Notes: generated by a model from the letters alone, not told the origin. A stretch of DNA of 62,988 bases, filler included, from Globobulimina sp. (GCA_003354225.1; 18 parts of 18 records of this genome joined end to end with filler, not necessarily neighbours in it), one strand, 5' to 3'; positions 616 to 55,982 are shown, counted from the whole stretch's first letter. Numbers and translations are program-made.

Positions 616-2397
616 TCATGTCACTGGCTTGCATAAATCAGAAAACGTCCCATTGCAATATTTGAACAATATCTTTGCTCTTAAAAATTCTATTTTCATT
701 AAATTCGCGGTCGATTCTCTGATATTTTTCGAGCAACTGTACGACGTTTGAATTGGATCTTCGATCACAAATATCAACTTTTTGCCTTTCAACGCATACC
801 CGGTCAAATCGCTATATTTCCGATTTTTTTTCATAACTTTTTGTTTAAACAATGACACGGATTGATTTACAAAATCAAACTCATTATAAAACTCAAAAAA
901 TCCAATCAATAAATCAGCTAAACATAATTTCTTATTTTTATTTAATTTGTCACCAACCACTAATTCAACTTCATTGCATAAACTCGCACCAATATTTTTT
1001 ATTTTCCTTAACATTGGCAAAATCTTTTGAGATTGCAAATATTTAATGGTTAACAAGACAAATCCAAAAGAATTCAATAAATGGTTCTGTGCATCGTTTA
1101 ATTTCCTTTGTTCTGCCCAATATTTAATGGCAATGATTAACTGTCTTATCCTTAAATCATTGTTGTAATCACAGAACGCATTGATTAATTGCACAATTTT
1201 CGCGTTTTCATAACTTTTTCCAAAGGAAATATCCACAAAAATATTATTTCCCTCATCTTTTATTTTAATAATTGGCACAGTGCAGTTAAATATATTTGTC
1301 ACCGTCAATTTGAAGTTGTTTGTGGTGCCTAACTCGATGGATAATTGTTGAAATAACTCCCATTCGCCAGATACAGATAATGCTAAATGTTGCGGTGTGG
1401 TTAGATACAAATCAATATCACTTCCTTTGCCATCTAATTTTGTGGCGGAACTACCAAATAAATGTACATATGCGGCACCGTTAAATGTCGCAAAATTAGC
1501 ACGCGATTTGAATGATGGCAGCGTTGAAAATAATACCTTTTTCCATAAATGTCCAATATGTCCAATTAGCTCATCTTTACATTGTTTTTCCTTTCCATCC
1601 ACTCGAGTTTTATCATAATAATGTCCCACTTCTTGAGATAATAAAGTCAGTGCATCCGGATTATTGTTTGTGTTTTTTCTCTTTTTTCTCCTTTTTCTTT
1701 TTTTAAACTTTAAGAGTTGGAATACATTATTTATGTCTTGTAATGTATGCAAATCATTGTATTCTTTATGTTGTTTATAATTAATTGGCATAAAATTGAT
1801 AATAAACTGCGTCAATAATTTTTTACAATCAATGATTACTGATTTTTCATCATTGGCTTCGATTAATTTACGTCCAAAAGATATGATAATGCGCGATAAC
1901 GAAATACTTTTCCGCTTTGTTTGAATCTTTGGGCTTTTAAGCAATAATTGTTTGATAATGTTTGTCCATATTAACTCTGATTGAATTAAATCATTTTCAT
2001 ATAAATAACACATTAAATGTTCAATTATTTCACAAAATATCTGCCATTTAATATTATTGTCGTGTTTAATAATTAATGTTTTATATTGACAAGAAATGGA
2101 TTCGTTTTCCGTTGTACTCTTTGGATCTTCCATTCTTATGATTATGTCATAGTATTTCAGGAATAATTTATAAACGATATCATTCATACAATTAAAACTT
2201 GTCTTTGTTTCGTTATTGTAATCATCATCGTTGATTATATCGCGTATAATTTTAGATATTGTTGCTTGTATCTTGTCAATTTGGATGGTTTCATCGATCA
2301 CAATCCGCTGCAGAGACTTGATTCTTTCAATAATATGCGACTGTTCATTGTTATCAAAATGTTTTAACAGCTTATTGATAAGAATCAAAGACGACAT
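616..2397 (-). CDS. Cid1/TUT4/GLD-2-family non-canonical poly(A)/poly(U) polymerase with helical N-terminal extension
   Basis: Pol-beta motif LFGSS...SDIDL, VPIIK, FVDISF, IKYWA, LNSFGFVLL and PAP-associated LLIGFFEFY...IEDP. Start moved to ATG 2397 by alignment with the paralog. Confidence 0.88.
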   Translation of the reverse strand: MSSLILINKLLKHFDNNEQSHIIERIKSLQRIVIDETIQIDKIQATISKIIRDIINDDDYNNETKTSFNCMNDIVYKLFLKYYDIIIRMEDPKSTTENESISCQYKTLIIKHDNNIKWQIFCEIIEHLMCYLYENDLIQSELIWTNIIKQLLLKSPKIQTKRKSISLSRIIISFGRKLIEANDEKSVIIDCKKLLTQFIINFMPINYKQHKEYNDLHTLQDINNVFQLLKFKKRKRRKKRKNTNNNPDALTLLSQEVGHYYDKTRVDGKEKQCKDELIGHIGHLWKKVLFSTLPSFKSRANFATFNGAAYVHLFGSSATKLDGKGSDIDLYLTTPQHLALSVSGEWELFQQLSIELGTTNNFKLTVTNIFNCTVPIIKIKDEGNNIFVDISFGKSYENAKIVQLINAFCDYNNDLRIRQLIIAIKYWAEQRKLNDAQNHLLNSFGFVLLTIKYLQSQKILPMLRKIKNIGASLCNEVELVVGDKLNKNKKLCLADLLIGFFEFYNEFDFVNQSVSLFKQKVMKKNRKYSDLTGYALKGKKLIFVIEDPIQTSYSCSKNIRESTANLMKIEFLRAKILFKYCNGTFSDLCKPVT

Positions 2398-2544
2398 GTC
2401 GAAAGAGTAGGGTGCAGGTTTTTTTTTAGCTGTTCTAAAAACAAAGAACAAGTATGATAATTAAAAAACAAAGAACAAGTAATTATAAACATATATTACA
2501 TATTGAAAATACAAATGACCTGCAAACAAGTCATGAAAAATATT

Positions 2545-7151: not shown

Positions 7152-7382
7152 ATGACAACAGCTGACAAAAATGTGACTACAGAATTAATTATGAGATACG
7201 GAATCTCTCTATTTATTTCAATTATGAGTGGATCATTTTGGATTATATGGCCAAATATAGGAATAATTAGCAAAAAAAAACTGAAAACTCATCCATCTGT
7301 TCCCTCAAGACAATACCAAATAACATCAAAAGACATCTTTACAAATAAAGAGAACAAAAGCAATCACTCCCACAATTATTAA
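7152..7382 (+). CDS. Small ORF with one hydrophobic segment
   Basis: 76-aa ORF ending 26 nt before the aminotransferase ORF; no homology recognised. Confidence 0.25.
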   Translation: MTTADKNVTTELIMRYGISLFISIMSGSFWIIWPNIGIISKKKLKTHPSVPSRQYQITSKDIFTNKENKSNHSHNY

Positions 7383-7408
7383 ATTCAATCAATTATCTAC
7401 ACAATAAA

Positions 7409-9484
7409 ATGATAAACATTGCAAACAGTGACATGAATATGAGTATTTTAAGTGGCTTTATAATAATGATAATATTTGTTGAAATCATTCATATTATTTA
7501 TGACAAAATTACATTATTTATTTGCGGTAATAATAACAAAATAATATCAAATTTGAAGTCAAAATATTTATATCAAAAAATGCCACTATCATTTGAAAAA
7601 GCAATAAATTTGGATAATGTGTCATTAAATATAATTAAGAAAAGAATAAAATCATTAGAAACACTTTGTAGTAAATTAAAAAAATTTGATTATGGAAAAG
7701 CAAATGAAATCCATTCAACTGATCCAAAATTAAACATATCAGCTTCAATGTATACACCAAAACAATTTTCATCGATTTTGCGAAAATATAAATTTTTTGT
7801 GCCACATATGTTTACAAAATATGATGAAAATGAAGGTTGTAAATTGCATGATATAAATAATAATATTTTATTTGATTTAGACAGTGGATGTGCTGTTAAT
7901 ATTATTGGTAATAAGAAAATGAATGAATTAATTCATAATAAAGTAAATAAAAATATGTATTGTGCCGGTGTTGCCAGTGTAGCAACTAAAAATGCGATAA
8001 ATAATATATTAAAAATATATAAAAATAAAAATCATTCATTTGATTGTGTGTCATTTATGGAATCAGGCAGCACAGCTGTTGCGTCGGTAGTTAAACAGTG
8101 TCGATTTTATCATTACAATTCAGGCAATACTGGCAAACGAAATAAAATTATTTTTTTTAATAATGCGTATCATGGTTGGATTCATTACCCATATAATAAT
8201 GACTTTAATATTGATAAAAATTTAATTATTTTAAATACATTGTCTGACAATGCAATAAAATATATTATTAATAATCACAAAACAATTGCAGCAATATTTA
8301 TTGATGCAATGAATGTATTTGCAATAAATAAATCATATCCATTTGAAGGCAATGGTAAAAGAATTTCAACATATCCAATATTATTTGCACAACACATTAA
8401 ATGGATGAAGAAAATGAATGAGATTTGTAGTAAATATGAGATATTATTTGTATTGGATGAATGTTACTCTGGTTTTAGAATTGGACCATATGGCGCAACA
8501 ATAACTTATGGTTTAAAACCTGATATTATAATATTATCCAAACAAATTGGATGTGCATTTAATACATCTGTAATTGTTTCAAATAAAAATATTATGAAAC
8601 GAAATAAAAATAATCTGTCATTAAATGTATTTGTAACAGGCACAGGCACAACCAATCCAAATCATCATAATTTAGTGAATAAATTTGTTGAGTATACGTT
8701 AACACAAAAATATTTAAATATTCATAAAAAGAAAATGAATATGTTTCACAATTGGTGTAATGAAATTAATTTTCAATTTAGTGAGAATAATTTACCATTT
8801 AAATTATATAATTATTATAACGTATTTACTTTAAATATATTAATTGATTCACAATATTCATGGATATTTATTTGGAAATTAATAAGTCATAATTTAATAT
8901 TTAAATGGTGTGGCACGGCAAAATTCACATTATCATTTGATTATAATGAAAAACACTTAAATGAATTGACAAATATATTTATAAAATGTGCTAAAGAAAT
9001 GTTGACTGATGCATGGTTTTATCATCAAAATAATAATATGAAAAAATCAAAGTCAAATTCAAATGAAACAAATATTATTTTATACAATGCAAAAGTGTAT
9101 TTGAACATTTTTGTAAATATGATAAGAATACAAATGGGACACATGCAACAAATGCAAAAGAATGTCTGGTGTTCATTATTGCAAATTGTAATCACATATC
9201 CATTGTGGTTATCATCATACAAATTTGAATCAATGATATTATTTTTATTGTTTCAATTATTAAAAGAAAAAAAATATTTCTTATTATTTATTTTAATTAT
9301 TATAATAGCAATTGCTATTAATTATATTAGCATCAAAAAAATATTTGTTTATATTGCATTATTATTATTTATTCACAAAGCAACTCAAAAAGCACGGAAT
9401 TATGGTAAATTATATGAAATTGTATGGTGTCTCAAAATATTTATTCATCCATTTGTTGATTTATATTATTCTGTTTTTTATTAA
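7409..9484 (+). CDS. Class-III PLP aminotransferase (GSA-aminomutase-like) with N-terminal TM and C-terminal membrane domain
   Basis: FDLDSGCAVNIIG, FMESGSTAV, NAYHGW, FVLDECYSGFR, PDIIILSKQIG (PLP Lys) and GT loop; intronless. Confidence 0.82.
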   Translation: MINIANSDMNMSILSGFIIMIIFVEIIHIIYDKITLFICGNNNKIISNLKSKYLYQKMPLSFEKAINLDNVSLNIIKKRIKSLETLCSKLKKFDYGKANEIHSTDPKLNISASMYTPKQFSSILRKYKFFVPHMFTKYDENEGCKLHDINNNILFDLDSGCAVNIIGNKKMNELIHNKVNKNMYCAGVASVATKNAINNILKIYKNKNHSFDCVSFMESGSTAVASVVKQCRFYHYNSGNTGKRNKIIFFNNAYHGWIHYPYNNDFNIDKNLIILNTLSDNAIKYIINNHKTIAAIFIDAMNVFAINKSYPFEGNGKRISTYPILFAQHIKWMKKMNEICSKYEILFVLDECYSGFRIGPYGATITYGLKPDIIILSKQIGCAFNTSVIVSNKNIMKRNKNNLSLNVFVTGTGTTNPNHHNLVNKFVEYTLTQKYLNIHKKKMNMFHNWCNEINFQFSENNLPFKLYNYYNVFTLNILIDSQYSWIFIWKLISHNLIFKWCGTAKFTLSFDYNEKHLNELTNIFIKCAKEMLTDAWFYHQNNNMKKSKSNSNETNIILYNAKVYLNIFVNMIRIQMGHMQQMQKNVWCSLLQIVITYPLWLSSYKFESMILFLLFQLLKEKKYFLLFILIIIIAIAINYISIKKIFVYIALLLFIHKATQKARNYGKLYEIVWCLKIFIHPFVDLYYSVFY

Positions 9485-21632: not shown

Positions 21633-21690
21633 GGTTTAAAGATGTTTTTTAATATACAACTTGAGTAAGTAACAGTGACAAATATTGACA

Positions 21691-23676
21691 ATGTCAGATA
21701 AAAAAAAGAAGAAACAAGCAGCATCCGTCCAGATTTATGCTCGTGTCCGTAAATTAATGCCATGGGAACCAACCAAGATATCAGTCAAAATATTAAACCA
21801 AACATCTGTGCAAAATAAAACAGATAAAAAAACAGCACAATATACGTTTTCACATATTTTCAATATGACAAAAACAAACGAGGATATATACCGTGTGATG
21901 GGCAAACCATTGGTTCGCAAAGTATTAGAAGGCTTCAATGCTGTATTAATCGCATATGGTCAAACCGGCAGTGGTAAGACCCATACATTGGTCGGCAAGC
22001 CAGAGCAAAACGTAATGGGCGTATTACCGTTTATGTTGCAAGAACTATACCATTCAGAATCAGTGCAACAACTCTCTGTTTCCGGCGTTGAAGCCTACGG
22101 TACACACGTTTCTCGAATAGAATTATATGACTTATTTAATCCAACCAATCTCGAACAAGATTGGACCAAAAAAAAAGGTCAAGGTGGCCTAGAACCAAAA
22201 AAAGCCACTGGCAAAATAGTGGACCAGTTAGAAGATTGTTGGGTTCGCATCAACGAAGCTCACGATGCTTCACATTTTGCGCCCACTGGAAAAAACCCTG
22301 AGTCTAGTCGAGGCCATGTCGGCTTTGTCACTAAAATCCAACAAGAGAACCCAGCCAATGGTACTATCACGACCTCCTATCTAATCGTGGTGGATTTAGC
22401 CGGCAGCGAAGGCGAAAGTGCATTCACGCCGGAATTTGTCAAGAAAGTGGATCCACCGACATTAATGGCGAGGAGATTAGAAGCCGGCTGTATCAATACG
22501 GGTTTATCGCAGTTACAGGTTGTTTTTAATGAATTAAAAGTCAAAGGCAAACTATCCAAATCGCGCGGTACTGGTTTACGCCGTATCTTACATGCATATA
22601 TTAACAGCAATTGCATGATCAGTGTAATGTTTACGTTGTCGCCTGCTTTTACCAACAGAAGCACCACTGAGTCCACCCTCAAATTCGCAGTGCAAGCGGG
22701 AATGGTGAAGGTGAAGCCAGTTAAGGCCAAAGCACGCGTTAACTATAAAGCATTGGTGGCGGAGTTACAGAAACACGTTGCTGAGCAGACTGAGTTAATC
22801 GAGGAATTAAACGATAATATCGAGAAATTAACGGATAAAAATGGTGATTTTGAGCATAAAATCAAGCAATTAAGTGCTAAATTAGCGAGCGGTGTGCAAG
22901 TGGATGCGAATACGAATGACATTGGCATTGCAGACGCAGAAAAACAGAGAAGGAGATTACAAAAAAAGGCATTTAAGCGGCATACCTCGCGAATGCCAGA
23001 CACGTTGCAGAGTGATCTGAATGTATTCAATGCCGCACACGATTCGGATGATGATGGGGATGGATATGTGCAGTTAAGTGCGGATGATCAGAAATCGATG
23101 GTTGCCAACAACTTATCCGCTACCAAAGTGGACTCAGATATTAAACGGATCCATGCGTATCGGAAATCCGCGGCGATTGATACTAATATGTTGAACCACT
23201 CCATTCGGAAAACCACCACGTTACGCAATTATAAGGGGGATAGTGGGAGTAAGGTGGCGCAGACATTTCAGGTGGATTTGAGTGCTGCGTATGGTGATTT
23301 GGATGATGATAAATGGGAGGATGAGGAGGAGGATGATCCGGATAATATACCTTCGTTTAGTGATATTAAAGAGAGGCAGAATACGATAAAAGCGTCGTTG
23401 GTGGGACAGAGCAATTTGTTTGATGATAATCAATATGAGAACAAGGAGGAGGATGAGGATGATTATAATGGAGATTTTCAGACGTTTACGGTGATGGATA
23501 CAGCTGCAATGGAGCGGGATGAGTTAATTGATTATTGTGATCAGTTGGAATCGAAGTTAATTGAAGAGAAGACCTTAAGATATGGCTTACAGAAATCGCA
23601 ACAGGTTATCATTGATCATTTGATGGAAACCAATGAAGCGTTGTTACAATGGTTTAAAATTAAAAAAATATTGTAA
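21691..23676 (+). CDS. N-terminal-motor kinesin with coiled coil and acidic tail
   Basis: YARVR, AYGQTGSGKT (P-loop), NPESSRGH (switch I), VDLAGSE (switch II), STLKFA; intronless. Confidence 0.93.
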   Translation: MSDKKKKKQAASVQIYARVRKLMPWEPTKISVKILNQTSVQNKTDKKTAQYTFSHIFNMTKTNEDIYRVMGKPLVRKVLEGFNAVLIAYGQTGSGKTHTLVGKPEQNVMGVLPFMLQELYHSESVQQLSVSGVEAYGTHVSRIELYDLFNPTNLEQDWTKKKGQGGLEPKKATGKIVDQLEDCWVRINEAHDASHFAPTGKNPESSRGHVGFVTKIQQENPANGTITTSYLIVVDLAGSEGESAFTPEFVKKVDPPTLMARRLEAGCINTGLSQLQVVFNELKVKGKLSKSRGTGLRRILHAYINSNCMISVMFTLSPAFTNRSTTESTLKFAVQAGMVKVKPVKAKARVNYKALVAELQKHVAEQTELIEELNDNIEKLTDKNGDFEHKIKQLSAKLASGVQVDANTNDIGIADAEKQRRRLQKKAFKRHTSRMPDTLQSDLNVFNAAHDSDDDGDGYVQLSADDQKSMVANNLSATKVDSDIKRIHAYRKSAAIDTNMLNHSIRKTTTLRNYKGDSGSKVAQTFQVDLSAAYGDLDDDKWEDEEEDDPDNIPSFSDIKERQNTIKASLVGQSNLFDDNQYENKEEDEDDYNGDFQTFTVMDTAAMERDELIDYCDQLESKLIEEKTLRYGLQKSQQVIIDHLMETNEALLQWFKIKKIL

Positions 23677-52579: not shown

Positions 52580-52695
52580 ACACGCAACTTTATGCCCTAG
52601 TTAGCCCAAAATATTTCCCAAAAAAAACTCGGCTAACTCTGGCGACAGTGTCGACCAACACCACCTTAAGCTAACTAGGGCATATTTTTGCGTGT
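52580..52695. repeat. 116-bp MITE-like element with 26-bp imperfect terminal inverted repeats
   Basis: ACACGCAA-ctt-TATGCCCTAGTTAGC (52580-52605) versus GCTAACTAGGGCATA-ttt-TTGCGTGT (52670-52695). Confidence 0.65.
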
Positions 52696-53135
52696 AAAAA
52701 AAACACACATTCCCTTAGGAAAAATCATACAATTATGATCATATTTGTCTGACAAAACCTCTGCTATAGTCATACATGTATGATTTTTGGTATGATTTTT
52801 ATAGTCATACATAATTCATTATCTCGGACGAGATCCCCTTTATTTCATAAATAATATCTAAATATATATGATTCTGCGTCTTATAGCAGTTATCCCTGTA
52901 TGTTGTTGGTTTGGTGATTTTCTTTGTTTTGAATGATTTGGATATTAATAGTTTGCCGGAGGTGATTGGGGGGTGTGACTCTCACAATTCTTGTTGTATG
53001 TCACCAAAATACAGCGTTGCTTTAGATAAAGCTTTTTTCCTTTCAAGACTTGTCGAACGACGAGCGTATGGTCTAAGTAAATTATACTTTACTTGAAAGG
53101 TTTTCACAGAACAAACATTATGTTTTCGAACACAA

Positions 53136-55982
53136 TCACACAGAAATCTGAACAACAGATTTCAAAGTTTTTTCTTTTGAATTATGCGTAAAAGTTATTT
53201 CAAAATGCACCACAAATGGTTCCTTTCCATGCTTTGTATTGTTCATTTCAAATTGTTGAGTAATTGTATTTGTTGATTCTTTCAATAACTTTACACCATT
53301 TGCTGCTTTGATTTGTAATTCAATATATTCTGCCACATCCACCACAAACCTAAAACCATCCATATCCTCCGAACTTTTATTATAAAATGTAGCTAAAACC
53401 CGACATATATTGCAATCTTTTGATGATTTAATAACTTCAAATGTGATTCTTATATCCTTATCATTATACACTTCAATAACTGTTCTAACCTCTTCTTTAT
53501 CATCATCACCAACCACAGCTAACACATCAACTTTTTTCTCATCATCACCATCCTCATTAATATTGCACATTGGAGTTGAACCATCCATCATCGCTTCCAA
53601 TTCAGCCAATTCATCATCTTCATCCTGTTGAATATCTAATTTTATCCGTTGTTGTGGCGGAGGCGCAGCGGGCAAATACATCACCGAACTACTTGCAATA
53701 TCATCACCCATTTCATTTAACAATTCGTCAGCTTCCATTTCTTCCAACTCTGCCAACTCAGCTTCCAATTCACTGTCATCCATAACTTGTCCTAACGGCT
53801 GCGACATTGCCTCGTTCATTTCAGCCACCTCATCCATTTGATCCATTGCCTCATTGATATCTTCCATTAATTCATCAGTTTTGTCTAAATCTGATTCTTT
53901 CACAGTTGCTTTCATTGTATTTGCTGATGTTTTCATTGCCTGTACGTTATAATCAGTGTTTATTGCAATATTAATATATATATATTTATAAATAATGTTA
54001 ACTTTTAATGTTTGTTTGTTGAGTTTAGCGTCTTGTAACGCCATAATTTGTGTTTCTAAATTTAATTTTTTTGCTTGTATTGAAGCTAATTGATTTTCGA
54101 ATTCTTTTTTCTTTTTTAATTGCGAAATTGCTCCTTTTTTATCTCTTTGGGTTGATTTTGTTTTTGCATTTTTTAAACAAACAGATATTTTCTGCTCTAA
54201 ATAAGCTTCTCTTTTTTCCAAAGTTCCCACCGCTTCACGTAATGCCTGAATATTGCTATTGGATGACGGTGGTTTGACTGCTTTCGGTCTTTTTTTCTTT
54301 TTTTTCTTTTTCTTTTTTTTCGAACTGCCTTCTTTTTGCTGAATATAAAATACACAGCTCACATTTTTTTGATATTTTGCAATGATAAAAATGATGCAAA
54401 CCTTAACCACAATCATCGAAGTCCACGGCGTCACAAATTTATACTTCATAGCCAATGCTAACGGCAATGTATCATCTTCTTTTTGTTCATCATCGTCTAT
54501 TTCAAGCATATCATTATAAAAAATCAATTTCTTTTTTGCAAACTGCTGTAACTTCAAATATGCCCATATTCGTTGGATATTATTCTCATTTACACCTTCT
54601 TTAACGTCATAATCTTCCTCCACAGGGATATTAATTTCAATTTCTTTATTTATCTCAATCGGTTTTGTAATGAATTTATTATCGCTTTTAACCCCTTTCG
54701 CAGTGATGGCAGTTATGGTGGCTTTGAGAGTTAATTGTTTCTCATTAATTAACTGACCGCCGATAATAATATCATTTCCATGGAACAATGTATTAAATTT
54801 GGTATTGGTGATATTTGTGATATTATTTGTATTATATTTAATGTTAATATTTGTCAAAAGTGGTCTGGATAAAATATGATAATATTGATTTAACTGCGTA
54901 TCGCAGTTTATCTTTTTTATTCTTTTATAGATTCCATTATTATTTAAAGATAATATTTTCAAAAATGAATGATTTAAATCTTTGATCCATTTCGAATCAT
55001 TGTCATTTGAGCCAACACCAAATGAATAAATGGATATCTTTGAAGAATATTTATCAATTTCTTTCAATTGATTTGCTTTTTCCACATTTAATAATATTTT
55101 GGTCGTATCCGTCACGCCATTGTTGGCTTCGCCATCGGTGATAAATATAATTTGATTGAGATAAAAATTATAATTGTCGTCAAGCGCCTGTTTGTCAATG
55201 AATGTGATGTCATTTTTTATTAAAATAATGCCATGCAATAATGCTGAATTTATATCTGTGGAGCCGCCAAGTTTCTGGGTTTGAACATAACTCATTGAAT
55301 CTTTGATATTTGCATCATTTGCTAATAATAAGTTATTATTTTGCGTTAATTGCTTGATATTTTGATCAAAAAATACGATGGAATATCGATCATAATGCAC
55401 TCTTAAAAGTTTTAGTGCGTTGATGGTGGCTTCTTTTGTTTTCCTCCATTTCTCGCCGTGCATACTGTAGGATCTGTCAATTATAAATATGACACGACGC
55501 GGTATCAATACATTTGAATCCTCTTTCATTTCATCACTGTGTCCCTCATTAATGTCTTTTGTATCACTTATTAACGAATCTGTAATCATATCAGATATGA
55601 TATGCACGAATGTTTGACTTTGTTGGTGGTATAATATCGAATGTTCGTTCTCTTCTCCTTTCACTTTGTATTTTAGCACAAATTCTGTCACTTTGCTCTG
55701 TTTATACCGTAATTTTCCTTTCATTGTATAACTTTGAGTGGATTTTTGCATTATATTTTCGTCAATTTGTAGTATATTATTTATATTGTCTGATATTGCT
55801 GGCAATTGAACATCAAATATGCCTCTCTTGTCAACAATATTTAAATTGAATGAGATATATTTGTAATTTTGTGAAATATGATATTTATTAAAATCACGCA
55901 CAATTTCAATATTTAATTCGTTAAAATTGCATTTTTTTTTAAGATATTGTTCAATTGTAATTGTTAATGATATTTCGGATTC
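53136..55982 (-). CDS. Fusion protein: ITIH-type VIT/vWA + Snf7 (CHMP4/Vps32-like) + gamma-adaptin ear; 5'-partial
   Basis: FIIDRSYSM, GGSTDIN, FITDG, RIWAYL, KYKFVTPWTSMIVV; then LEKREAYLEQKI..DKKGAISQLKKKK..LETQIMAL..AMSQPLG..DDSELEAELAELE; then VYNDKDIRITF..ATFYN..ITQQFEMNN..GKEP. Two in-frame 63-nt introns (54401-54339, 54002-53940). Confidence 0.82.
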   Translation of the reverse strand, partial: ESEISLTITIEQYLKKKCNFNELNIEIVRDFNKYHISQNYKYISFNLNIVDKRGIFDVQLPAISDNINNILQIDENIMQKSTQSYTMKGKLRYKQSKVTEFVLKYKVKGEENEHSILYHQQSQTFVHIISDMITDSLISDTKDINEGHSDEMKEDSNVLIPRRVIFIIDRSYSMHGEKWRKTKEATINALKLLRVHYDRYSIVFFDQNIKQLTQNNNLLLANDANIKDSMSYVQTQKLGGSTDINSALLHGIILIKNDITFIDKQALDDNYNFYLNQIIFITDGEANNGVTDTTKILLNVEKANQLKEIDKYSSKISIYSFGVGSNDNDSKWIKDLNHSFLKILSLNNNGIYKRIKKINCDTQLNQYYHILSRPLLTNINIKYNTNNITNITNTKFNTLFHGNDIIIGGQLINEKQLTLKATITAITAKGVKSDNKFITKPIEINKEIEINIPVEEDYDVKEGVNENNIQRIWAYLKLQQFAKKKLIFYNDMLEIDDDEQKEDDTLPLALAMKYKFVTPWTSMIVVKVCIIFIIAKYQKNVSCVFYIQQKEGSSKKKKKKKKKKRPKAVKPPSSNSNIQALREAVGTLEKREAYLEQKISVCLKNAKTKSTQRDKKGAISQLKKKKEFENQLASIQAKKLNLETQIMALQDAKLNKQTLKVNIIYKYIYINIAINTDYNVQAMKTSANTMKATVKESDLDKTDELMEDINEAMDQMDEVAEMNEAMSQPLGQVMDDSELEAELAELEEMEADELLNEMGDDIASSSVMYLPAAPPPQQRIKLDIQQDEDDELAELEAMMDGSTPMCNINEDGDDEKKVDVLAVVGDDDKEEVRTVIEVYNDKDIRITFEVIKSSKDCNICRVLATFYNKSSEDMDGFRFVVDVAEYIELQIKAANGVKLLKESTNTITQQFEMNNTKHGKEPFVVHFEITFTHNSKEKTLKSVVQISV

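Follow-up and report, generated by a model that had tools for sequence, protein, structure and literature searches.

A Globobulimina locus best explained as part of a Snf7/CHMP4-class ESCRT-III gene with two added modules

The locus described here is best explained as the 3′ 85–90% of one expressed, conserved foraminiferal gene that encodes a Snf7/CHMP4-class ESCRT-III paralogue carrying two added modules, a von Willebrand factor A (vWA) module ahead of the Snf7 core and a gamma-adaptin-type ear (GAE) behind it. We give this reading a probability of about 0.6; that the locus is one real gene with a vWA-Snf7-ear architecture is, in our judgment, very probable. Snf7 proteins are normally small, standalone membrane-scission polymers, and the Snf7/CHMP4 class is among the most architecturally conservative of eukaryotic proteins. 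Foraminifera are organisms of extreme membrane and pseudopodial dynamics for which few genomic resources exist. A conserved, spliced and constrained Snf7 paralogue that carries two modules of a protein-binding type is an arrangement not described before: an earlier note, made from the DNA alone, knew of no described protein of this kind, and our search of the main texts of open-access papers likewise found none describing it.

The window, that is, the whole stretch of DNA analyzed (62,988 nucleotides), consists of about 18 contigs of ~3.4 kb each from Globobulimina sp. joined by N44-TTAATTAATTAA-N44 linkers. The features of the gene and its contig are as follows.

52580–55982, no strand assigned: contig holding the gene, 3403 bases, with N44-TTAATTAATTAA-N44 linkers at both ends (from the N runs and linker positions)
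54402–55982, minus strand: exon 1, 527 codons, 5′ end cut; end of the VIT region, vWA and ITIH-like region as far as VTPWTSMIVVK (VWA match at 1.1e-9, match to ITIH1, colinear with P0122 and P0273)
54996–55493, minus strand: vWA domain (Pfam), residues 164–329 of the read-through product
54339–54401, minus strand: intron 1, phase 0, 63 nt from GT to AG without an in-frame stop, at the very boundary of the vWA module with the poly-Lys/Snf7 part
54003–54338, minus strand: exon 2, ten Lys and an Arg (54288–54320), a short Pro/Ser linker and Snf7 helices 1–3 as far as ...LNKQTLK (colinear with yeast Snf7 core 5fd7, chain 9–95)
53592–54263, minus strand: whole Snf7/CHMP4-type region from helix 1 through the alpha6-like helix, counting intron 2
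53940–54002, minus strand: intron 2, phase 0, 63 nt from GT to AG without an in-frame stop, within Snf7 rather than where Snf7 meets the ear
53139–53939, minus strand: exon 3, second half of Snf7, acidic autoinhibitory-type region, alpha6-like helix (DELAELEAMM), linker and GAE, followed by TGA at 53136–53138 (CHMP4B fragment 3um3_B, 4e-6)
53166–53477, minus strand: GAE beta-sandwich (Pfam; predicted fold), best PDB sequences the gamma1-adaptin ear and the GGA2 GAE

The open frame runs on the minus strand from the contig end at 55982 to the TGA stop at 53136–53138. The earlier note was right that this is a single frame within a single contig, but its count of at least 921 codons needs correction, since there are 948 sense codons when the frame is read through and 906 when both introns are removed. 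The 5′ end of the frame is cut off by the contig end, and alignment to the Nonionella stella protein P0122 places the missing part at ~137 residues.

Both 63-nt inserts, which the earlier note had described as intron-like, frame-keeping and in one case located at the vWA-Snf7 junction, are true GT-AG introns, and without them the protein aligns colinearly to homologues and to yeast Snf7. For intron 1, the homologues pass from VVK straight to E/Q-K-E/D-G and lack the 21-residue insert that reading through would give. The Reticulomyxa model P0035 seems to have an intron read through at the site of intron 2. For intron 2 itself, the alignment to yeast Snf7 breaks exactly at the intron, and the intron is absent from contigs in two (X4 and X6) of the four sequencing runs whose Logan contigs we examined, runs whose kinds are on record as "?" or "RNA? 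(a guess)" and none of which is recorded as RNA. Specifically, record 12 of X4 skips intron 2 exactly (63 nt, CT..AC on the plus strand), and record 19 of X6 skips 65 nt with 2 letters between. At intron 1, record 4 of X1 reads through the intron, and record 13 of X4 and record 20 of X6 cease to fit at 54402, their 23 and 38 extra letters not matching the intron. Record 15 of X4 continues for 428 letters beyond the contig end at 55982. Two further joints, 53111>55869 (side 21, one contig, depth 4.45) and 55595>55719, were taken as noise.

The Snf7 part is complete, from helix 1 to helix 6. Pfam Snf7 matches the read-through product at 3.5e-19 (69.5 bits; cut-off 27.3) with intron 2 still in, and P0001, an orthologue, reaches 99.7 bits across positions 3–169 of the 171 in the profile. 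Alignments to the yeast Snf7 core 5fd7 are ungapped on either side of intron 2, and over 171 columns the fused core is 76% identical to a standalone foraminiferal Snf7 (P0005). The match to CHMP4B fragment 3um3_B (4e-6) includes DEDDELAELEA aligned with EEDDDMKELEN, and an acidic C-terminal region of autoinhibitory type and an alpha6-like helix, a putative Bro1/Alix-binding site, are present. The apparently complete Snf7 domain with an acidic tail that the earlier note had reported is thus borne out by the Pfam score, the colinearity with 5fd7 and the CHMP4B match. The hydrophobic protofilament interface has been mapped by mutagenesis in yeast Snf7 (PMC4720517), and at these hydrophobic polymer-interface positions the window equals the standalone P0005 in 13 of 13 cases. 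Of the six electrostatic interface positions, three are as in the standalone form, and where yeast has E95 and E102 the window has Gln; relative to yeast Snf7, several interface positions differ in fused and standalone forms alike. The locus thus shares with the Snf7/Vps32/CHMP4 proteins the Pfam Snf7 domain, colinearity with 5fd7 and 3um3_B, the acidic tail and the alpha6-like helix, and differs from them in length (~225 residues as against at least 906 in the spliced product; the standalone P0004–P0030 have 221–246) and in having a VIT-vWA module ahead of helix 1 and a GAE after alpha6. Where the standalone foraminiferal Snf7 has TKKK, the window has a run of ten Lys (54291–54320), which is the poly-Lys linker of the earlier note. 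According to a survey of the PspA/Snf7 superfamily, fusions are no more than occasional in eukaryotes (<5%), and some of them are attributed to annotation errors (PMC11237479).

The vWA module is of the inter-alpha-trypsin inhibitor heavy chain (ITIH) type, with an intact metal-ion-dependent adhesion site (MIDAS), much as had been claimed from the DNA alone. Pfam VWA matches the read-through product at 5.3e-9 (37.0 bits; cut-off 23.8), and the MIDAS, read in translation, is complete, with DRSYS at 55464–55478 and GGSTD and ITDG downstream; the motif is kept in P0121, P0122, P0123 and P0273. The vWA part matches residues 277–598 of ITIH1 (6fpy) with an E value of 5.5e-33, its end FVTPWTSM corresponding to FVTPLTSM. 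The VIT domain, truncated by the contig end, escapes detection in the window; P0122 has it at 4.7e-19, and of 56 scanned relatives of the VIT-vWA part 27 have it. The ITI_HC_C domain had no match in the window protein or in the N. stella relatives scanned. VWA was found in 33 of the same 56 relatives, and the partner domains among them comprise HSP70 (3), adaptin ear (3), Ras (2), Snf7 (2), protein kinase, CAP-Gly, SAM and PH. The vWA module belongs to a VIT-vWA family of foraminifera whose members occur fused to many different domains. Intracellular VIT-vWA proteins include human VWA5A/BCSC-1 and Dictyostelium Vwa1 (PMC10539598). VWA5A/Vwa1 and the secreted ITIH heavy chains (6fpy) have in common with our module the VIT (seen in the orthologues), the MIDAS vWA and a region ending VTPxTSM; unlike the ITIH/VWA5A-type proteins, the module shows no ITI_HC_C and is followed by Snf7 and GAE. 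The orthologue N-terminus reads MFGRLFG followed by a polar stretch and, judged by eye, has no signal peptide, as in the cytoplasmic VIT-vWA members. A search of the ESM Atlas gave no usable match.

At the other end of the protein lies the ear. GAE domains recruit accessory proteins on AP-1/GGA adaptors. Pfam Alpha_adaptinC2 matches the read-through product at 8.5e-14 (52.2 bits; cut-off 27.6) and the ear on its own at 2.1e-15. An AF2 model of the ear from a 10-row alignment has a pLDDT of 86.1 and a pTM of 0.79, and all Foldseek matches listed to rank 26 are ears of gamma1- or gamma2-adaptin or of GGA proteins (TM 0.74–0.81, E 4.6e-9 to 7.5e-7). These results uphold the assignment of a GAE beta-sandwich in the earlier note. 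The predicted fold is the eight-strand beta-sandwich of the gamma-adaptin and GGA ears (1gyu, 1iu1, 1na8, 1p4u, 2ymt, 5cn1), from which the window ear differs in having neither an adaptin trunk nor VHS-GAT. Canonical gamma-ear partner binding by this ear is doubtful, judging from its residues: the position of gamma1-adaptin Ala753 is Asp in the window and varies among the orthologues (Lys, Lys or Cys). The position of Leu762 is Ile in the window and Met, Ile or Met in the orthologues. By their titles, the PDB entries 1gyw and 1gyv are the A753D and L762E mutants, respectively, and the A753D change reportedly abolishes partner binding (Kent et al. 2002). The sole paper that our literature search on A753D in adaptin returned, PMC3285160, merely lists the PDB entry.

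To related protist transcriptomes the earlier note had looked for a check, and there the same order of modules was found: vWA, poly-Lys, Snf7 and ear recur in transcriptome proteins of N. stella and in a marine metatranscriptome protein, P0268. Six N. stella sequences (P0122, P0273, P0001, P0002, P0003 and P0121) and two metatranscriptome sequences (P0165 and P0268) span the junction. P0268, of 664 residues, combines vWA with a full Snf7 and a GAE in a single product, and its junction, with no more than four consecutive Lys, is not low-complexity, and the ENA fragments P0058 and P0267 join the Snf7 C-terminus to GAE. Across the taxa with this architecture the Snf7 core is 39–66% identical. Three N. 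stella sequences (P0121, P0147 and P0271) have only the C-terminal half of Snf7 beside the ear, P0121 lacking helices 1–3, which indicates either that the polymerizing core is not always retained or that these transcripts are mis-assembled; in P0123 a low-complexity linker leads from VIT-vWA to GAE, and Snf7 went undetected. A search for long proteins with both Snf7 and ear gave four matches, of which three belong to N. stella and the fourth is a plant kinase with no relation to them, and no further species. The suggestion that the architecture is lineage-specific is supported, our searches having found it in foraminiferal or foraminifer-like data only. The trees speak for a single origin of the fusion. 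In the free tree the fused forms of the window and of N. stella fall into one group (SH-aLRT 85). That tree placed P0268, which has a long branch (1.25), apart from the other fused forms, but a constrained tree with all five fused rows in one clade was not rejected (p-AU 0.716); its log-likelihood exceeded that of the free quick search by 7.78 units.

The orthologues also bear on how the modules were put together. P0122 and P0273 from N. stella start with MFGRLFG, the Snf7 N-terminal motif, and continue with VIT and then vWA, so that ~640 residues of VIT-vWA stand between the motif and helix 1; standalone foraminiferal Snf7 starts with MFGRLFGTNQTKKK. Both of the fused-type sequences with a complete N-terminus begin in this way, P0122 and P0273 being the only ones that an N-terminus search returned; they share their first 41 residues, and a common assembly error is possible. 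Since these orthologues begin with the Snf7 motif, the VIT-vWA module would be an insertion ahead of helix 1, and we think it probable that it was inserted in the flexible stretch that separates the Snf7 membrane anchor from that helix. The earlier note had pictured a head-to-tail fusion, a picture that the orthologues speak against in that they suggest a VIT-vWA lying inside Snf7, after its N-terminal motif. The missing 5′ end of the window gene would then, to go by the orthologues, start with the MFGRLFG membrane-insertion motif, and low-complexity tethers would flank the VIT-vWA module, its 3′ edge being marked by intron 1. A globule of ~640 residues beside helix 1 may hinder filament packing.

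The alternative that survives best, although we hold it rather improbable, grants the fusion but takes the protein for one of a foraminiferal family of VIT-vWA hubs with interchangeable C-terminal payloads, in which Snf7 acts as a coiled-coil spacer or autoinhibitory switch ahead of the ear and forms no filaments, and in which MFGRLFG is incidental or an artefact. Such a family would fit the varied partner domains of the 56 VIT-vWA relatives, the existence of P0123 and P0121 with no Snf7 detected or without Snf7 helices 1–3, and the change of two electrostatic interface residues in the window. It fits poorly with a core that is 76% identical to its standalone paralogue, that keeps the hydrophobic interface in full and that retains the acidic tail and alpha6-like helix, because conservation of this kind is not expected of a mere spacer; it also leaves aside the presence of the Snf7 N-terminal motif in both fused-type sequences with a complete N-terminus.

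Far less probable is that the frame is an assembly chimera, or that it comprises two or three neighboring genes, joined via the A-rich tract at 54284–54326. The assembly is highly fragmented and this contig a short one, and among the pieces listed from the four runs, beside which 264 others and 73 loose ends exist, none bridges the tract, which is masked as a repeat. In addition, word depth in run X1 is ~3700x over the far end of the contig (52580–52921) as against 5–8x over the gene, a difference of ~500-fold which indicates that this flank, outside the open frame, is a repeat or a doubtful join. (The 30-nt high-depth element occurs once in the window, and an Rfam search of the 3′ flank of the gene gave sub-threshold matches only.) X1 contigs, however, extend into the tract from either flank and carry 31 and 23 additional letters, no stop codon lies between the modules in any splicing state, and the in-frame junction recurs with diverged flanks in the six N. 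stella and two metatranscriptome products, in one of which it is not low-complexity. The same order in N. stella and metatranscriptome proteins thus agrees with the earlier note in favoring one gene over a chimera.

Sequence variation in the other runs speaks for constraint on the gene. Among the 39 variant positions listed (139 further positions exist), 18 are synonymous and 21 are not; among those listed in the ear, nine are synonymous and two are not, and the indels listed are all in frame (12, 9 and 3 nt). A dead chimeric pseudogene drifting neutrally is the least probable of the alternatives, for although it is unusual that both introns are multiples of three and free of stops, and although the 5′ end is unseen, 948 codons stay open in DNA of ~30% G+C, the architecture is conserved among taxa with diverged Snf7 cores, synonymous changes exceed chance expectation, most clearly among the listed ear positions, and spliced contigs occur in two other runs.

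As to what such a Snf7 paralogue with two added modules might do, we tentatively propose, from the make-up of the protein, a co-polymerizing, self-targeting ESCRT-III subunit equipped with targeting and recruiting domains of its own, a proposal that may well prove wrong. The earlier note had conjectured a membrane-remodeling protein that would couple cation-dependent ligand binding, ESCRT-III polymerization and clathrin-adaptor partners, and this coupling is likewise no more than a hypothesis. Canonical Snf7 relies on separate nucleators, for example Vps20/ESCRT-II, Bro1/Alix and CHMP7. In our proposal the Snf7 core would still open and, on membranes, take its place in ESCRT-III filaments, in all likelihood as the rarer subunit beside the standalone Snf7 of the same organisms, since a homopolymer would be crowded by one bulky module per 30 Å. 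The poly-Lys run could add affinity for acidic lipids beside helix 1, and the MIDAS vWA and the ear would be built-in protein-binding sites that either determine at which membrane site filaments assemble or supply the filament with partners. With vWA and ear both attached to Snf7, nucleation and partner recruitment would be built into the polymer subunit itself. An extended form of this proposal, which we regard as unlikely as it stands, has the vWA threaded between anchor and core and the ear on the tail, the subunit bypassing or supplementing ESCRT-II/Vps20 and Bro1, and the whole belonging to a broader radiation of Snf7 fusions within foraminifera; if true, ESCRT-III scission would be physically linked to AP-1/GGA-type accessory proteins. 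A precedent is provided by CHMP7, an ESCRT-III protein to which a targeting module has been added at the N-terminus, and in which a Snf7-family polymer domain is combined with a module that decides where filaments start. CHMP7 differs in that its N-terminal part is ESCRT-II-like, whereas the window has VIT-vWA and GAE, a CHMP4-like polymer domain and a module that apparently follows the membrane anchor. The role of CHMP7 in triggering Snf7 assembly is mentioned in PMC4720517.

Should the subunit still enter filaments, it would amount to a natural experiment on how much cargo an ESCRT-III subunit can carry, and would offer tests of filament targeting without the usual nucleators and of a direct wiring of the ESCRT-III and clathrin-adaptor networks. 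More broadly, one and the same VIT-vWA module is combined in foraminifera with many different domains of the trafficking and cytoskeletal kinds.

Other Snf7 fusions were also seen in foraminifera, namely Snf7-SAM in Bolivina (P0158), an anchor-insert-Snf7 arrangement (P0040) and Snf7 followed at its C-terminus by a novel domain (P0031 and P0051).

We file the product of this gene as an ESCRT-III subunit that bears two added modules, a pairing without precedent and so far found only in foraminiferal or foraminifer-like data. No description of the fused architecture was found in openly accessible articles, and sequences with this architecture are already present, unnamed, in public protein sets. 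According to a survey of the PspA/Snf7 superfamily, Snf7 architecture varies minimally, occasional fusions (<5%) occur in eukaryotes, and some of these are possibly annotation errors (PMC11237479).

The gene lies entirely inside contig 52580-55982. An earlier note had described a single frame with a MIDAS-containing vWA module, the VTPWTSM end, a poly-Lys run, an Snf7 domain and a gamma-adaptin ear, all of which we confirmed using Pfam, translation and an alignment to human ITIH1; its codon count and the position of its second insert, which falls inside Snf7, are corrected here:

53136-55982, minus strand: open frame from the contig end (55982) to a TGA at 53136-53138, 948 sense codons if read through
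55464-55478, minus strand: MIDAS motif DRSYS, read in translation, with GGSTD and ITDG after it
54339-54401, minus strand: intron 1, 63 nt, GT..AG, phase 0, no in-frame stop
54291-54320, minus strand: run of ten Lys codons, read in translation
53940-54002, minus strand: intron 2, 63 nt, GT..AG, phase 0, no in-frame stop

With the read-through product as query, Snf7 (3.5e-19, 69.5 bits), Alpha_adaptinC2 (8.5e-14, 52.2 bits) and VWA (5.3e-9, 37.0 bits) all exceed their curated Pfam cut-offs. The vWA and the region following it form a single alignment to ITIH1 (PDB 6fpy residues 277-598, E 5.5e-33), which ends in FVTPLTSM against FVTPWTSM, and in translation VTPWTSM closes the vWA module.

When the 948-residue product was searched against all of 1.84 billion representative proteins, 2273 matched at E <=0.001 and 61 at E <=1e-30. 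The best were proteins of the Nonionella stella transcriptome (EukProt EP01083), and the best matches for the gene overall came from Nonionella, Ammonia, Bolivina and Reticulomyxa, which puts the source organism within the foraminifera. Specifically, the N. stella protein P0121 carries VWA, part of Snf7 and the ear, and P0122 carries VIT, VWA and the start of Snf7, aligning unbroken to query residues 1-635. Three further proteins (P0001, P0002 and P0003) run from the last residues of the vWA module through poly-Lys and a full Snf7 into the ear, and P0268, a 664-residue marine metatranscriptome protein, has part of the vWA, VTPWTSMIVV, a complete diverged Snf7 and the ear, with only four consecutive Lys at the junction. 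In two ENA fragments (P0058 and P0267) the Snf7 C-terminus is joined to the ear. The claim that the parts belong to one gene is thus borne out by junction-spanning proteins from N. stella and the metatranscriptome.

Both 63-nt inserts, previously called intron-like, are introns, as indicated by spliced contigs and by colinearity with homologues. Intron 2 is skipped exactly in a 577-nt contig from sequencing run X4 and, with a two-letter difference, in a 909-nt contig from run X6 (~94% identical); at precisely this point the alignment to yeast Snf7 core structure 5fd7 is interrupted, and beyond intron 2 it continues in register. At intron 1, the fit of the X4 and X6 contigs ends with the last exon base (54402), beyond which they carry 23 and 38 further letters that lie off the intron, and all homologues pass from ...VTPWTSMIVVK directly into E/Q-K-E/D-G-...KKKK without the 21-residue insert. 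Contigs of run X1, whose depth is even and low, read through both introns, and X1 is probably DNA-derived. Removal of both introns by script left a 906-residue product that contains no stop and is colinear with homologues over its whole length. We note that P0035, a standalone Snf7 model (Reticulomyxa filosa RFI_07949), has an odd hydrophobic insert of ~50 residues between ...LNKETL and AMQTT..., at the place of intron 2. This looks like an intron left in by the annotator; if so, the position of intron 2 is common to standalone and fused genes.

Over 171 columns the window Snf7 core is 76% identical to P0005, a standalone foraminiferal Snf7, 66% to an N. stella fused form and 39% to P0268. Using yeast numbering from the ungapped 5fd7 alignment, anchored on residues named in Tang et al. 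2015 (PMC4720517), we found that the window agrees with standalone foraminiferal Snf7 at 13 of 13 equivalents of the hydrophobic protofilament interface and at three of six positions of the electrostatic interface; E95 and E102 both correspond to Gln in the window but to Glu in N. stella P0001. The acidic region and final DELAELEAMM helix align (4e-6) to 3um3_B, the CHMP4B C-terminal fragment crystallised with Brox. A quick ML tree built from 60 Snf7 cores groups the window with the N. stella fused forms inside the foraminiferal standalone forms (SH-aLRT 85, not starred) and places P0268 apart on a long branch. A single origin of the fused forms appears compatible with these data because an AU test does not reject (p 0.716) one clade made up of all five fused rows; by 7.78 log-likelihood units, the tree constrained in this way outscored the free quick search.

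The C-terminal 167 residues alone match Alpha_adaptinC2 at 2.1e-15 (Pfam), and among PDB sequences they match gamma1-adaptin ears and the yeast GGA2 GAE best. An AF2 model built from a 10-row alignment has eight strands (pLDDT 86.1), and with it Foldseek listed only gamma-adaptin or GGA ears to rank 26 (TM 0.74-0.81), with larger alpha-appendage entries ranking only below. By their PDB titles, 1gyw is an A753D mutant and 1gyv an L762E mutant. The A753 position is Asp in the window and Lys, Lys or Cys in orthologues, and the Leu762 position is Ile in the window. Because these positions are altered, and both mutants reportedly lose partner binding, the canonical peptide groove of the window ear may not be conserved.

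Alignment to P0122 indicates that the contig end cuts ~137 N-terminal residues off the window protein. P0122 and P0273, both N. stella fused-type sequences with a complete N-terminus, begin with MFGRLFG, a 23-residue polar stretch and then VIT; P0273 overlaps P0001 across the junction, and together they tile a protein of ~1100 residues. Standalone foraminiferal Snf7 (P0005; P0270 from Ammonia sp.) starts MFGRLFGTNQTKKK and proceeds to helix 1, which in fused forms follows the vWA module after ...GNQKKKKKKKK or ...GSSKKKKKKKKKK. The simplest reading of these sequences, based on one species' transcriptome, is that Snf7 received a VIT-vWA cassette in the short basic region separating its N-terminal membrane-insertion motif from helix 1, with intron 1 marking its 3′ edge. 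In P0040 (NCBI), ~200 unrelated residues separate MFARLFG from the Snf7 core, and the stretch behind the N-terminal motif may be a recurrent insertion point. Among other Snf7 proteins in foraminiferal or foraminifer-like data, P0158 (Bolivina argentea) has three Snf7 stretches and a SAM domain, and P0031 and P0051 (ENA/NCBI) combine Snf7 with a novel C-terminal region that the two share; with P0040, these suggest that the radiation of modified Snf7 proteins is wider.

We examined 39 variant positions between related strains or species (139 further positions lie outside this set), of which 18 are synonymous and 21 non-synonymous, the latter clustering in the Snf7-ear linker and in a variable stretch after the vWA. 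The ear accounts for nine synonymous and two non-synonymous variants among those listed, and the listed indels (12 nt in total at 53504-53521, 9 nt at 53832 and 3 nt at 54596) are all in frame. In this rough and incomplete sample the pattern does not look like neutral decay: the in-frame indels and the ear counts speak against the dead pseudogene that had been raised as a refutation. Relative to X6 and all homologues, the window has an extra 9 nt in the 53832 region (three codons, ...DQ-MDE-VAEMNEAM; Snf7 helix 4-5), and its linker ahead of the ear (53497-53521) is 12 nt longer; both are in-frame length polymorphisms between close relatives.

The Snf7 core would be expected to open and join ESCRT-III filaments on acidic membranes, because it differs little from a working paralogue and has retained the tail elements. 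Since a large globule adjoins helix 1 and the filament subunit repeat is given as 30 Å in PMC4720517, the protein is probably a minority subunit mixed with standalone Snf7, or one placed at filament starts. Low-complexity tethers flanking the insert could keep the anchor and helix 1 together at the membrane, and the Lys run would raise affinity for acidic lipid or, alternatively, serve nuclear localisation. On this reading, the MIDAS vWA and the ear would provide built-in docking sites that choose where a filament starts or load partners, tasks performed for canonical Snf7 by separate nucleators.

The main rival to a filament subunit is that the protein is one of many VIT-vWA 'hub' proteins, in which the Snf7 stretch now acts only as a spacer or switch. 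Some VIT-vWA proteins are cytoplasmic, among them Dictyostelium Vwa1 and human VWA5A (PMC10539598). Among 56 VIT-vWA relatives, 33 have VWA and 27 VIT, and partner domains include HSP70 (3), ear (3), Ras (2) and Snf7 (2, E <=1e-5), as well as protein kinase, CAP-Gly, SAM and PH; P0124 (Ammonia sp.) is VIT-VWA-Ras and P0129 (Bolivina) VWA-CAP-Gly. The N. stella protein P0123 has VIT-VWA, a low-complexity linker and the ear, with no detectable Snf7. Its linker contains three NPF motifs and DDLLGDLFGG. This stretch aligns with the Snf7 alpha6-like helix of fused forms and may be what is left of a decayed Snf7 or, alternatively, a group of short motifs like those of adaptor hinges. In the N. stella proteins P0121, P0147 and P0271 just the second half of Snf7 remains next to the ear, and two of the three have a membrane-protein-like N-terminus. 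They could represent paralogues, isoforms or mis-assemblies, and they speak against a simple account.

The window comprises ~18 contigs of ~3.4 kb (3400-3407 bases), apparently length-sorted, with a G+C content of ~24-41% in 2-kb windows. The contigs are merely joined by six-frame-stop linkers (N44-TTAATTAATTAA-N44), and neighbouring 'genes' are therefore not genomic neighbours. Six of ten long ORFs scanned had no Pfam match at 1e-5; matches in other contigs were:

619-2460, minus strand: Cid1/MTPAP-type nucleotidyl transferase (Pfam 6.5e-13)
7349-9481, plus strand: class-III aminotransferase fragment (Pfam 8.1e-29)
21679-23673, plus strand: kinesin motor (Pfam 5.2e-49)

By itself the contig leaves some doubt, as it could be an assembly chimera joined through an A-rich tract: the assembly is highly fragmented, the vWA/Snf7 junction crosses such a tract (54284-54326) that was skipped as a repeat when reads were mapped, and the contig's far end (52580-52921) has ~3700x word depth in X1 versus 5-8x over the gene. 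In the junction mapping proposed in the earlier note, X1 contigs enter the tract from either side, although none of the contigs listed from the four runs bridges it. The doubt is removed by independent data sets: the same in-frame order of parts, with diverged flanks, recurs in several assemblies made by different methods, unlike what assembly artefacts would yield.

The 3′ flank outside the ORF (52580-53035) is either a high-copy genomic repeat or a doubtful join; its ~3700x word depth occurs only in X1 and falls to 28 at 52922-53035 and ~7 over the gene. Within 53036-53149, an element of ~30 nt (core ~53080-53113), 25-55 nt downstream of the stop codon, has no Rfam match and occurs once in the window. 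Its word depth is 107-738 in all four runs versus 5-20 for the gene, and numerous different loose ends flank it on either side. It is therefore repeated in many contexts and could be a common 3′-UTR element or a small repeat.
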